Shown piece after piece: positions 2,089-26,554 of a stretch of 64,000 bases of DNA (its first letter is position 1; every line of letters starts with the position of its first letter). The notes under the pieces are model-generated. The model had not been told where the DNA came from, did no database searches, and saw only the letters and a program-made list of their open reading frames with translations. Source of the DNA: Eledone cirrhosa (Eukaryota); contig OZ024743.1 of the NCBI GenBank assembly GCA_964016885.1, forward strand, positions 22,134,001 through 22,198,000. The letters are read 5' to 3'. The translations under genes were made by a program, and so were the position numbers.

Positions 2089-2197
2089 TTAGAAATGTTA
2101 GCTATCGCCGTATTTTGAGGGTTCTTAACCCACTATCAGGCTAAATAATTTCTTTAATTTCTTTAGTCAAAATACGGCGATAGCTAACATTTCTAAT
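2089..2197 (-). mobile_element. Fold-back mini-element in (TA)n with a degenerate minimal hammerhead motif
   Basis: 30-bp inverted arms ttagaaatgttagctatcgccgtattttga (2089-2118) / 2168-2197. Minus strand 2144-2098 reads TTAGC-CTGATAG-TGGGTTaagAACCCTC-AAAA-tacggcga-TA-GCTAA (stem I and II intact, core mutated). Confidence 0.6.
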
Positions 2198-2409
2198 AAT
2201 TTCAAATCAACTCGCTGTTTCGAAAATATTCTTACTTGATATATATATATATATATATATATATATATATATATATATATATATATATATATATATATTA
2301 TAAAGAAAACGAAAAATCAGTGATGTATCTGGACTTATATGTATGTATATATATATATATATATATATATATATATATATATATATATATATATATACAT
2401 ACATACACA

Positions 2410-2950
2410 CGTGCACCTTCTCTGGTGTCTGAACGTCATGATAATCTCCGATTTCAGGTTGACCGCATCATCCTTCAATCTGACTATCTCCATGGCCTCG
2501 GATAGGCATAGCCTACACTTCCTGTTTCCAGCCGAATATGCATTTGCATGTTGAACGATACTCCAGTTGAGATCATACGGAGTGCCGTTGTCTTTCAAGT
2601 CCCATATTAGGTCCGCCAGCCTAGTGGAGTGTCTCTTGCTCCGGTCCTTGAAAGAGTTTGTGTGATTATACATCCACGATTTAAAGGTCGTGGATGTTGC
2701 GCCGATGTAGGTGCGCTTGGTGTTGTGCGTGTTAACCACACATTTATATACTAGGCCCTTCGTTAGGCATCTACCCTACAGGAGGCATGGTTTTCCCGCT
2801 CTGCAGTTGCATGTTCGGTCGTTATGTTGCTCATTTCCAACGCTGGGCCCTTGGTCTACCACGGCACATCCCCGATTCTCTGGGTGCTGTTCTGTCGGTG
2901 CGGTGGGCCCCCCTCCGCCACTCAGTTCCACCCTTTCCACTCTATAATAC
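2410..2950 (-). pseudogene. Penelope-like element GIY-YIG endonuclease C-terminal fragment
   Basis: [43 protein letters not shown]; same type as the 7530-7920 endonuclease. Confidence 0.85.
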
Positions 2951-3084
2951 TCTGCTCCGTAGGAGCATAGAGTGCTCAACCGGCATACCGCCTTTGGACG
3001 CATCTTAGCTACCTTTAGACATATATATATATATATATAAATATATAAATACACATACACACTTGTATTCATCTTCTAGTTCTG

Positions 3085-3205
3085 ACTCCCCCTTCTGATG
3101 AAAGACTAGTGTCCAAAACTTTAAGACTCTCTATTTCAAGCGTTAAACTAATATATTTCTTCCATGTACTGTGTAATTTGTATTTTTGTTTCTGTTTACA
3201 TTTTA
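3085..3205 (+). mobile_element. PLE-type 3' terminal remnant (related pieces at ~10035-10115, 37790-37865, and minus-strand 5947-6015, 11217-11292)
   Basis: Degenerate CTGATGA-aGAC tagt GTCc-AAAAC motif followed by caagcgtKaaactaata, a sequence shared with the other copies. Confidence 0.5.
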
Positions 3206-3247
3206 CACACACACGCACACATATATATATATATATATGTTATATAC

Positions 3248-3368
3248 ATGTGTGTGTGTGTGTGTGTGTGTGTGTGTGTGTGTGTGTGTGTGTGTGTGTG
3301 TGTGTGTGTGTGTGTGTGTGTGTGTGTGTGTGTGTGTGTGTGTGTGTGTGTGTGTGTGTGTGTGTGTG
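3248..3368. repeat. (TG)n microsatellite
   Basis: Perfect ~120-nt TG run. Confidence 0.98.
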
Positions 3369-22186: not shown

Positions 22187-23569
22187 GACGAACCCACAAC
22201 ATGCACACGTAAACATACATACCTACATCAGCATACATCCTACATACATCTCTATCCACATATAAACACAATGACATACGTAAACACACATGTTCTGTGG
22301 TGCAACCAACACAAATATACACAAATTTGCATACCTTTTGATGTCTATAGATATAAACGTGCCGACACACACATATACGCACACATGCATTGCACACTGA
22401 TGGGCACATACATATTTGTACACAAGTATTCCAATACGGCAGGGCCTAATGGATTCCCCTTGCAGTACGTACAATCTGGACACTCACACACACCTTGGTG
22501 TTATGACAATACTATACATCATTTCACACCTTTTATTATTAATGTTTTTGAAGTTCTCTTGAGAGAATCGTTTTTGCTGAAAGTATCGAATAATGTACAC
22601 CATTTTTACCAGTATCACAAAAATACTGGTCCACCCACACACACATACACACACACACACACACACACACACACACATATATATACACACACACACACAT
22701 ATATACACACACACACGCGTACATTAACATACAAAGAGACATACACACACACACACACACACATATACACACACATACACACGCGTACACTAACATACAA
22801 AGACACACACACACACACACACACACACACACACACACACACACACACACACTCACACACACATATTTGTCTTAATAGGCACCTGAACTGTTGACCTTTC
22901 AACATGACTTCAGTTCACACACACATCCCTACTGACCATTATCACAACAATGAACCTCTTTCCTACACACACACATATTTGTCTTAAAATACTTATTTTT
23001 CAGTGACTTCTCAATCAGGCGAAAAAGGACACTCTTCGACAAACTTACATTTGGCGCAAAATCAATTTTTAACATTCACATGACTTCTACCGACCAATCA
23101 AAATTGTTTTGATCACAAGAATTTTTGCAACACGAATTGGCGCGAAACTTATTTTAATACCTCTTAGAGCAAACATCACGAGCGCTCTATCTCAAAATTA
23201 TTTTTGAAAAGCCTTAGAAATGCGCAACCGGTAAAAACTTAAAACTAAAACTGAATACTAACCAATATTTATTACTAATTTTTACTTATTCTTAATTAAA
23301 CTATTTTTCACTGGGAACAATTTGTCAGCATTTTCTTTTCCTTTAACCAATATATATATATATATATATATATATATATATATATATATATATATATATA
23401 TATATATATATGTATATCTGACGATTTCTCACGAACTATATTAAAACTTTTATACTCTGCTATGTATTGAGTACCTTACTTACTGTGGTTACCTCCGATT
23501 CAATCCGGAATAACTTATATATATATGTTTGTATATATATATAAATATATGAATAATATAGTTAAGAGT

Positions 23570-23900
23570 TAACTGGCTCTCCCTCGGTTACGACGACGAC
23601 TGTTCCAGTTGAAATGATCAACGGAACAGCCTGCTCGTGAATTTAACGTGCAAGTCACCGAGCATTCCGCAGACACGCATATCATTAGCGCAGTTCTCTG
23701 GAAAATTCAACGTGATACATAAGGGGATAAAACTGGACTTTCGAATTAAAAGATACAACTCATTTTTGCTCGCTGGGTGGACTGGAGCAATATGAAATAA
23801 ATTGTCTTTCTCACGGATACATCGTGTCGCCGGGAATCGAACTCAAAACATTACGATCGTGAGCCGTATATCTTAACTACTGAGCCACGTACCTTCACTG
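23570..23900 (-). mobile_element. tRNA-derived SINE (Octopus OR-like); related plus-strand copy at ~54575-54830
   Basis: Minus strand begins ggctcagtagttaag...gagttcgattcccggcga (A/B-box-like) followed by a CORE-like body. Confidence 0.65.
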
Positions 23901-24521
23901 TGTGATTGTATTTTTTCCGTTTATTTCACTTTGTTGTACCAGTGATCTCTTCCTTTTGAAAAGATCTTTTGATCGAAAATTCGAACAATGGATAAAGATA
24001 TGTTGTTTTTCTAATGCACTGCTTTGGTCTCCAAATCTATTAGTCTATCTGTTTGTCTAACTTTTATCTATTAGAGAGTATATTTAATTTGCTTCATATA
24101 GAACTAACTTCGTCAGAAATACTACTGTTTTATTTAGTGGTGATTTCATCAGAAAGTTCACTGAGTGGAACAGTATTAGTCCTGTAGAAGTCACTTCTTT
24201 AACGTATAATATATGCCTGCATATATATATATATATATATATATATATATATATATATATACATTGCATACATATATTATAAGTTAAAGAAGTATATATA
24301 TATATATATATATATATATATATATATATATATATATATGTGTTGGTTAGATTACTAATAGGTAGATCCAATCACTTCGATTAGTAGATCATGATGCAAT
24401 TAGCAAAAGCACTCGACACTGGGAGTATCTGCCATCATACGCGTGGCAACATGAACGGAGTTAAATACATCAATAAAAATACAAAAAGGCCTGATTCCAA
24501 TATTTTCCTTTTATAATTCAT

Positions 24522-24606
24522 AATTGTATAATACATATTTCTATGGCCGGATTTACGTCATGGTGTGTCTACGTAAGCCTGCCATAGAAACACGTATTAT
24601 ATAATT
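24522..24606. repeat. Fold-back hairpin centred on a hammerhead-like stem II
   Basis: aattgtataatacatatttctatggc ... gccatagaaacacgtattatataatt; right arm reads stem-GAAA-CACG-TA. Confidence 0.55.
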
Positions 24607-24731
24607 GTGTTACATTAAAGGAAGATATTTGAATTTTGGCTTATTGTATTTTCATTGATATATATATATATATATATATATATATATATATATATATATA
24701 TATATATATATATATATAATATATATATATA

Positions 24732-24929
24732 TAACGAAGGAAGTGTGGTAAGGAACCAGATGGACCATAACGCACCAGAGTACTCAATACTTAGGGTAGT
24801 AGAGTGGGTAATAGGAAAATGTTTAACCCCAACGGCAGAGCTGAAGCCGTTTCGACGGCTATTTCTGCTATCTAGAAATAGCCGTCGAAACGGCTTGAGC
24901 TCTGCCGTCGGGGTTAAACACTTTCCTAT
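24732..24929. mobile_element. Fold-back mini-element in (TA)n; non-fold-back relative at 25473-25630
   Basis: Near-perfect palindrome 24811-24929; right arm reads GCCGTC-GAAA-CGGC ttgagctct GCCG-TC (hammerhead 3' half). Confidence 0.75.
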
Positions 24930-26554
24930 ATATATACTGTATACATTGTGTGTGTGCTCTGTATATATATATATATATATATATATATATATATATATAT
25001 ATATATATATATATATATATATATATAATGTGTGTGTGTGTGTGTGTTTATACCATGTGAACAAGAAAGCCAAGCTTAAAACGTTTCCATGGTTTAATCC
25101 ATCGAAATGGTGGTTTACATGTAATAAATAATACCTAGACTCTACTTTCATTAAAGTATCAACTACCAAGGTTGCGATTACTAAATTGAATAATGGTCCT
25201 ACTAGTCATTTTAACTAGTAATGCCTCATATTTTCTCTGTTACTGTCTGTCTCTTTCTTTTATATATATATATGTGTATATATATATATATGTGTTTGTG
25301 TGTGTGTATGTACTAATATATAGATTTTTTTATTCGTCCTGCCTTGTTTTCTTTCGTTATCTTCTCTTTCAGAATTATCCTAATTTTATGTTTTATATAT
25401 ATATATATATATATATATATATATATATATATATATATATATATATATATATATATATATATATATATATATATAACGAAGGAAATGTGGTAAGGAACCA
25501 GGTGGACCATAACGCACCAAAGTACTCAATACTTGGGGTAGTAGAGTGGGTAATAGGAACCAGTAAGACCCCGACGGCTGAGCTCAAGCCGTTTCGACGG
25601 CTAATTCTGTTGTTTCACATAGAACTAACTATATATATATAAAACATTAAATTAGGATAATTCTGAAAGAGAAGATAACGAAAGAAAACAAGGCAGGACG
25701 AATAAAAAAATCCTTTTAAAGGGGGAACCTTAACATTTTTTTTGTTTTTACATTTTTTCAAAATATAAAGACAAACGAAAGACATAGATCTCCAAGGTAT
25801 TCAACCGTTGAGATGCAATTAGGCAGTTTCGACCCCTTCCAACGGTACAGCTAGTCCGCCCAAAAGGCCGTCCGTGGAGTAAAAGACAAGACAAAATAAT
25901 AACTTAGAGTATTTAATCTATTGCAGGTACTCGTGGAATTTTATGTGACGATTAGGAAAAGGTATTGTGATTTTTATAGACTGAAAAAAAAAAAAGGAAA
26001 AAAAAAAGGAAAAATAAAAAGATAGGAAAAAAGGAAAGAACAAAGTAAGATATCTGGTTAAAAAATGTAATCCATTGAAATTATTGGAGAAGAATGAACA
26101 CGTTCGTCACAGATTAATAATAATAAAAGTAAGATAATTGATAAAGAGACGACAACGAACGAAAAATATTTTAATGGGAAAACCATTAAAAGTATCGTTA
26201 TTTTCCTAGTTTCAGTCAGTGGGTGATATTTCTGATGTCTGACACAGTAGGATGCCCTAGTGCTCTTTAAAGTGTGGCGTCTTTTTCAGTAGAATATTGA
26301 AAATCTCTCCTCGTTAGATCTCTAAGCTATTTCAGTTCGTTTCCATTCTAGAAGCCCATCTGGCCGCAGTCCATTATGGTTTCAGGAGGCTCTGAGTGAC
26401 TGAAAGTAAAACGACGGTTGTCTGAACAAGACAGCAGTGCATCGCTGCTGGTGATACTTATTTTTTCAGCTGAGTAGACTGAAGGAGAGATAAAGTGCTG
26501 TACTAAAGAATACTATATATATATATACAGATAACTGTATATATATATATATCC

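Follow-up and report, generated by a model that had tools for sequence, protein, structure and literature searches.

What fixes the point at which a short genomic insertion turns back on itself? The window, by which we mean the whole stretch of 64,000 nucleotides analysed here (Eledone cirrhosa, contig OZ024743.1, positions 22,134,001 to 22,198,000 of the forward strand), contains four short hairpins, and a sequence-only reading of it had proposed (i) that these are elements embedded in (TA)n whose inversion point sits at a hammerhead ribozyme; (ii) that they belong with the inversions of Penelope-like elements (PLEs); (iii) that the ribozyme makes complementary DNA (cDNA) synthesis stop and snap back; and (iv) that they form a class of ultra-short palindromic ribozyme insertions. 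The hairpins and their (TA)n setting are confirmed, and two of the four prove to be pieces of the pseudo-long terminal repeats (pLTRs) of PLEs with real hammerhead motifs. The mirror point, by contrast, likely marks the predicted start of the element RNA and not the ribozyme. We consider it probable that the two PLE palindromes are stump insertions of Hydra-clade PLEs in (TA)n, with the same anatomy in the other two, and that they consist of twin-primed cDNAs which ran off the 5' end of the RNA and were joined head to head.

All four hairpins are members of repeat families, named here after their window starts: A (2089), B (11406), C (24522) and D (24811 and 25477). Each family has many relatives across the 3.0-Gb genome that was sampled; in an evenly spaced 1-Mb sample, which was used for cluster counts and for the D tail arms, D forms 50 clusters, B 22, A eight and C none. 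Over 1 Mb (L151-L250), 93 local palindromes have arms of 25 bp or longer, many of them from PLE-like families.

The B hairpin (11406-11509) pairs 50 of 50 bp around a 4-nt loop (folding z = -19 against 200 shuffles), and the D hairpin (24811-24929) has 56-bp arms that are 95% complementary (z = -20 against shuffles); these two are the young ones, and, like the others, they are far beyond chance. The C hairpin (24522-24606) is the 26-bp core of arms that truly extend over approximately 24469-24650, with 70 of 90 aligned columns paired, while the perfect 30-bp arms of A within 2089-2197 (2089-2118 and 2167-2196) can be read directly from the sequence. All four are flanked by, or adjoin, (TA)n runs and share one anatomy: the 3' tail of one arm enters the (TA)n, and there is often a shorter inverted arm, which ends at an internal TA-rich site, as published for PLEs (PMC8557442; PMC3846280).

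Position of the mirror point

Positions in D are numbered from +1, the A of an initiator (Inr)-like motif that we take as the predicted start. The even sample yielded 36 D tail arms, from which three long copies reaching beyond -60 were set aside. Breakpoints in the remaining 33 are strongly non-uniform, as the sequence-only reading required, with 14 starting in -3..+9 where 2.8 are expected (p = 2e-7); a single arm starts in -48..-28 and the rest are truncated further 3'. The enrichment is not where that reading had placed it, however: only two of the 33 start within 3 nt on either side of the cleavage site (1.6 expected), and none starts in upstream loop II (5.6 expected). Among the first 100 matches listed, we counted by hand 55 distinct D arms joined to (TA)n, of which 24 reach +1 to -3 and 31 start at +2..+6; none of these clearly matches the parent further upstream.

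A comparison of five families (D, B, H, G and E) gives a similar picture; family I was left out for want of a reference, and families F, J, K, M, N and P, being too sparse or without mapped parents, were uncounted. The arms starting in -5..+10 number 43 of 86 in D, 19 of 27 and 27 of 33 in B (two references), 13 of 25 in H, five of 13 in G and six of 48 in E. In four of the five families (D, B, H, E) a TATA-like word, for which the background chance is about 0.025 per 6-nt window, starts 28-30 nt before the edge. The position of the ribozyme core relative to the same edge varies widely (-43, +7, +43, +89 and +113), and in H, E and G, whose hammerheads were identified by eye, the centres lie 43-113 nt upstream of the core. 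Across families, the edge tracks the promoter motif rather than the ribozyme.

That the inversion point lies at a hammerhead holds as a family rule for B and D only, presumably because the predicted promoter overlaps the hammerhead in these two. It fails for A, which has no core, and for C, in which the usual 5' end is far upstream of the core. In D, both the TATA box and the predicted start are inside stem-loop II, so that an RNA begun there would lack the 5' half of the ribozyme.

Parent elements and their hammerheads

Long copies of D lead to a tandem monomer of 3,531 bp with an open reading frame (ORF) of 717 amino acids, in which the motifs RWR (one change from RWK), SDKT, YRDD, CNCPDRSIC (CxCx5C), CNLC (CxxC) and CKH (CxH) were recognized by eye; a CCHH motif was not seen. 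This is a single ORF in which the reverse transcriptase motif YRDD is followed by VIYQ..YIG, the motifs of a C-terminal GIY-YIG endonuclease. Pfam and PDB searches with the 717-residue ORF gave no significant match. Among 8,000 candidates scored, 2,036 homologues of the D protein were found at E<=1e-20, the top homologue carrying PF01541, which we take to be the GIY-YIG domain. By these ORF motifs, the GIY-YIG order, insertion into (TA)n, tandem and inverted pLTRs and a one-sided tail, the D parent is, as far as its sequence tells, a Hydra-clade PLE.

Counted from +1, the hammerhead core of D is at -43, the TATA-like word at -29, GAAA at +19, cleavage after +41, the 3' ends near +58 and +139, and the ATG at +232. 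The predicted type I hammerhead of the D parent consists of stem I, a U3-A8 core (TTGAGAA), stem II closing a 35-nt loop, GAAA, stem III and GUC, and thus has a core with 3-8 pairing, three stems and an NUH triplet. The U3-A8 form is already known among PLE hammerheads (PMC4209133). Among 17 distinct long core variants, 12 have U3-A8, four a C3-A8 mismatch and one is mutated, and stem II of subfamily D2 contains one compensatory pair. The parent folds into a three-way junction that is no stabler than its shuffles (z = -0.18).

Because the core is of the U3-A8 form, CTGANGA searches for the D parent failed: one gave no match and another 41; 30 loci were inspected, and these proved to be coincidental junctions or chimeras involving other families. 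The mirrored GAAA, stem III and triplet of 24811-24929 are as first described, and the 5' core is indeed absent, but what was lost is TTGAGAA and not CTGANGA. The turn had been placed at the tip of stem II; the apparent stem II is the inversion itself, and the turn lies where the 35-nt loop II of the parent ends on its 3' side.

Several observations on D stand apart from this argument. One locus (L281-L283, G000:C1:437.198-437.214 Mb) is an array of approximately 4.5 monomers of 3,531 bp, nearly identical and with an intact ORF, which ends in an inverted arm of 287 bp that carries the tail; judged from this array, the family looks very young. At L284 (G000:C1:91.48 Mb), the 5' end of the array repeats a 55-bp piece of the D ORF about 50 times in tandem, which suggests repeated template slippage. 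In L124, L130 and L148, a pick biased by the search pattern, D arms are joined head to tail with another PLE family at the hammerhead stem II of that family. Finally, a D arm begins immediately behind (TA)n in at least 1,217 minus-strand genome matches; such stumps could be transcribable if the microsatellite replaces the TATA box that was lost.

In B, the perfect 50-bp arms turn just 5' of CTGATGA, as had been noted, and the minus strand carries a complete candidate type I hammerhead with CUGANGA and GAAA cores, three stems and an NUH triplet. Stem I is fully paired in three compensatory variants (25, 11 and three arms among the 20 commonest types listed), so that covariation, too, points to a type I hammerhead. 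Its minimum-energy fold is a three-way junction, not stabler than shuffles (z = -1.0). A strict scan for CTGANGA, stem II and GAAA missed this motif because of its U-U closing pair, and an Rfam scan of the window returned no hammerhead family among 112 matches at E<=1. The TATA-like word is exactly 36 nt before the core in 28 of 30 long B parents. We recovered no B copy of full length; at a single locus, L170, the tail end and the 5' untranslated region (UTR) of B are followed by a broken ORF homologous to D residues 1-229. With its pLTR joined to a Hydra-type ORF, B is by homology the end of a Hydra-clade PLE.

The unit of family A measures 271 nt, occurs in tandem and has a head resembling tRNA-Ser(GGA), which ARAGORN called in three of six loci (L079, L083, L090). 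On neither strand of one doubled 271-nt monomer did we find a CUGANGA or UUGANAA core, and the position in 2089-2197 at which the second arm was said to start with GAAA reads CAAAA. A nevertheless shows inverted 5' arms, a (TA)n target and tandem units, i.e., the insertion anatomy of a PLE, and has two fixed 3' ends approximately 30-40 nt apart, the tail-less arms ending at +117..+122 and the other cluster at +154..+157. Starts of A arms pile up on the 3' side of this head (24 of 70 in -4..+7), the window copy being an outlier at +45; the pile-up is likely a stall rather than a start. A literature search for a tRNA-headed element of this type with PLE anatomy found no paper.

C is an old family, with about 80% identity between copies. 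In a count of 22 arms, for which the script had over-extended the window copy, the core motif is intact in 12 and GAAA in 19; stem II is weak, and two alternative hammerhead readings exist. Truncation as in the window copy is atypical of the family, since 13 of the 22 arms pass both core motifs and extend 160 nt or more beyond the anchor on the upstream side. The window hairpin is genuine; its arms meet in a shared CATG (24559-24562), 5' of a point-mutated CTGATGA position, and both retain the 15 nt before GAAA.

One cDNA or two

Each of 25 unselected two-armed D copies has exactly one tail. The 3' ends of 90 D arms fall at two sites, 67 at +58..+64 and 23 at +133..+141, and among 21 copies the tail-less arm extends further 5' in nine, the tail arm in seven and neither in five. 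The 4-nt B junction, found at 95 loci over most large contigs, has the parent orientation on the tail arm in 56 cases and is flipped in 41 (two loci are in both lists), a ratio compatible with 50:50 (p = 0.15). Fold-back of a tail-primed cDNA predicts only the parent-orientation class. Given that the tail-less arm holds the 5'-most bases in nine of the 16 informative D copies and in the 41 flipped B junctions, a single folded-back cDNA is insufficient. Furthermore, the parts of the element that meet at the inversion junction of long copies are far apart, and the longer arm can be either of the two. Arms of different families can also be joined head to head, as seen in one of 63 cases in the even sample and the window and in three joins of D with G (L121, L138, L145). 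Inheritance of the hairpin from one master copy was also considered, and was ruled out by the mirroring of subfamily alleles within copies and by the variation of junctions.

We propose that both ends of the cut target would prime reverse transcription on the element RNA, at two fixed internal sites, and that both short cDNAs would run off the 5' end of the RNA at the predicted transcription start. The cDNA ends would then be joined head to head by 0-4 nt of microhomology or by a short snap-back of one run-off end; such a local snap-back, at the end of the RNA and not at the ribozyme, may help the two cDNAs to join. The edge would be the start of a capped mRNA, the stumps would come from cap-proximal start sites on the full-length mRNA, and both arms would usually copy the same RNA molecule. 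A wider proposal, to which we give an even chance, is that the stumps amount to rapid amplification of cDNA 5' ends (5'-RACE) recorded in the genome: in each, two strong-stop cDNAs, one from either target end and both begun at cap-proximal sites, would be fused at the transcript start. With the D promoter in loop II, the ribozyme in the 5' copy on the mRNA would be only half present, leaving cleavage to the 3' copy made by read-through, and the same machinery would mobilize A as a PLE passenger resembling a short interspersed element (SINE).

Several points tell against twin priming with run-off at the transcript start. The start site is predicted from motifs and the edge of copies only, and a cap-templated extra G is weakly represented (two of seven unambiguous junctions in a hand count of 55 distinct loci among the first 100 matches listed). 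The -3..+9 bin was fixed only after the data had been seen, and +1 of B was picked partly from the TATA spacing. Family G has no TATA-like box at -30, few E arms are at the edge, and 18 of the 36 D tail arms are truncated further 3', at +13..+81, so that many cDNAs must stop early or be trimmed. For neither A nor C was an autonomous parent found. Flipping of short palindromes after insertion could equalize the loop orientations in B. Lastly, arms within a copy share subfamily alleles, 60 of 64 copies differing at no more than two of 11 nt, while 59% of between-copy arm pairs differ at three or more of the 11; both arms therefore usually stem from one RNA or one source, which fold-back predicts equally.

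This allele sharing also fits an alternative in which the palindrome is formed at the outset, by self-priming on an antisense template or through a free hairpin intermediate, and an endonuclease then trims one of its arms, so that a tail is left on one side (Arkhipova et al. 2013; Craig et al. 2021). PLE junction palindromes have been explained in this way in print (PMC3846280), as has the tail (PMC8557442), and self-priming could leave the tail on either arm. By itself, however, it predicts no sharp centre that follows a TATA box of the sense strand by 30 nt, nor does it predict cross-family head-to-head joins or the non-local junctions of long copies, and independent trimming would yield many copies with no tail or two, which is at odds with the one-tail count. 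In vitro, moreover, two internal sites of the sense RNA serve the extension of both target strands (PMC11167929). We regard this alternative as unlikely.

It is also unlikely that two cDNAs were joined as we propose but that the edge is some other fixed RNA 5' end or a stall of the reverse transcriptase, caused by processing, structure or a modified base. The pile-up of A at the 3' side of its tRNA-like fold, the missing TATA-like box of G and the weak cap-G signal speak for it. A stall at stem II in D would nevertheless put the ends at about +9..+18, whereas the edge is at +1; the B ends lie beyond the whole ribozyme, and the TATA spacing is constant in four families despite their differing local structure.

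The original proposal, that the ribozyme hairpin or cleavage site halts synthesis and a single cDNA snaps back there, is largely refuted by the position, family and junction data, and we hold it to be very improbable. It draws on the centre at or inside the hammerhead in B and D, on one reading of C that places the turn of the window copy within a long domain II, and on the B centre, whose pre-existing 3-bp mini-hairpin makes a short snap-back plausible. Its real product in D, a stem II snap-back with loop II beside the mirrored GAAA arm, was found in none of the loci and nowhere in the genome with one mismatch allowed. To this can be added the missing enrichment at the D cleavage site and upstream loop II, the distance between centre and core in H, E and G, the coreless A, the C arms that pass both core motifs, and a tail-less arm that is often the longer one. 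Insertion was also unchanged by ribozyme mutants in vitro (PMC11167929). Assembly or hairpin-read artefacts can practically be dismissed, as point mutations distinguish the arms, the asymmetry is at family-specific fixed sites, one B junction recurs at its 95 loci, and D junctions vary, some copies having (TA)n between the arms (L027).

Window copies and known systems

The arms and motifs of the window copies are collected in Table 1. The A copy and the one-armed D copy each stand in the (TA)n between the inverted arms of another element (at 2027-2337 and 25323-25712, respectively), i.e., insertions nest in one another's microsatellite. Fragments of Hydra-type PLE ORFs, with 33-40% identity to the D protein, are located at 7501-9232 (-) and 2398-2817 (-). 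Two complete minimal hammerheads of another family, with a stem I of 7-8 bp, are arranged head to head at 10610 (-) and 10921 (+) within the inverted repeat 10329-11202. A one-armed, D-like element at 1899-2060, with few relatives in hand, starts with the 3' half of a hammerhead (stem II 3' strand, GAAA, stem III, triplet).

Table 1. Arms, hammerhead motifs and inversion centre of the palindromic copies in the window
Feature	Position	Strand	Remarks
A tail-less short inverted arm	2089..2118	-	family positions ~+120 to +91; outer end merges into (TA)n
A tail-bearing arm	2117..2239	+	5'-truncated at +45, atypical for A; overlaps left arm by 2 nt
B tail-bearing arm	11328..11461	-	predicted start ~11461; full type I hammerhead motif followed by ~80-nt tail that runs into (TA)n
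B type I hammerhead motif	11411..11461	-	stem I 6 bp, core 11455-11449, GAAA 11436-11433, stem III 4 bp, triplet GUA 11419-11417
B inversion centre, 4 nt	11456..11459		3-bp mini-hairpin already in long parents; both orientations relative to tail genome-wide
B tail-less inverted arm	11460..11509	+	core, GAAA and triplet kept; stem I 5' strand lost; ends at internal TAT merging into (TA)n
C left arm	24469..24562	-	old family, ~80% identity between copies; truncated within CTGATGA position
C right arm	24559..24659	+	CTGATGA position point-mutated; GAAA 24587-24590
D tail-bearing arm	24733..24867	-	+139 to +5 of putative Hydra-clade PLE pLTR
D tail-less inverted arm	24874..24926	+	+6 to +58; GAAA 24887-24890, GUC triplet 24907-24909; hammerhead 5' half absent
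One-armed D copy	25476..25609	-	+139 to +5; then ~20 nt unrelated filler; nested in (TA)n of another inverted-repeat element

Twin priming is familiar from L1, where both target ends prime cDNA on the element RNA and the products are joined by microhomology. L1 inversions duplicate no sequence and their second priming site varies, whereas the two fixed sites and common run-off end proposed here would produce a near-perfect palindrome.

With the Hydra clade of C-terminal endonuclease-positive (EN+) PLEs (Craig et al. 2021, PMC8557442), D shares a single ORF with RWK-like, DKT, CxCx5C, CxxC and CxH motifs, and further shared features are the pLTR hammerhead, insertion into (TA)n, tandem and inverted copies and a one-sided tail. 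The D monomer is longer (3.5 kb, against generally <3 kb), as are the tails of B and D (~80 nt, against 30-40). Unlike the described Hydra PLEs, these families have left tens of stumps per Mb, and the U3-A8 core of D goes with a 35-nt loop II that holds the predicted promoter. Published PLE hammerheads likewise include type I pLTR motifs, the U3-A8 variant and dual motifs on opposite strands 100-700 bp apart; B and D differ in their full stems III, and short D copies in having only the 3' half of the motif. The non-LTR retrozymes (bioRxiv 10.64898/2026.07.22.740005) are also short, non-coding, PLE-derived sequences with type I hammerheads, but they are head-to-tail tandems with a whole ribozyme per unit. 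The window copies are head to head, and D stumps, which lack the 5' core, often hold half a ribozyme, so we rejected retrozyme identity.

The inverted PLE pLTRs of Arkhipova et al. (2013, PMC3846280) share the head-to-head arrangement, the junction palindrome and the tail on one arm, and a TATA box with an Inr-like motif is reported there for one pLTR. In its available text that work explains the palindromes by antisense self-priming and does not tie their centre to a start site, whereas our data favour two sense-templated cDNAs. In vitro, the protein of a Poseidon-clade PLE cuts and extends both target strands and uses two internal start sites on the RNA (Frangieh et al. 2024, PMC11167929). 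The two internal sites that define the tail are thus shared with this Poseidon system (PAc), in which ribozyme activity is dispensable for insertion; its initiation is non-homologous to the target and inside the ORF, while both sites here share TAT with the (TA)n target and are in the 5' UTR. That work leaves open how the two cDNAs are joined (PMC11167929), and the origin of tandem and inverted PLE structures is called undefined in PMC8557442.

Inverted pLTRs, junction palindromes, tails and opposite-strand hammerheads are therefore already in print. In the main texts of the open papers searched, we found no statement tying the palindrome centre to the transcript start, and the rule of start site and twin priming, which is testable and moderately supported, contributes to a question that is still open. 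As for the elements, they are ordinary by-products of PLE insertion and do not form a new class of ribozyme insertions. Occurring at tens of stumps per Mb, they are numerous enough for models of insertion to be tested by counting. The one-tail rule, the flip in orientation and the sharp 5' edge link the two-site initiation seen in vitro to inversions in the genome and, if the rule is true, junction centres would map PLE promoters without RNA data.

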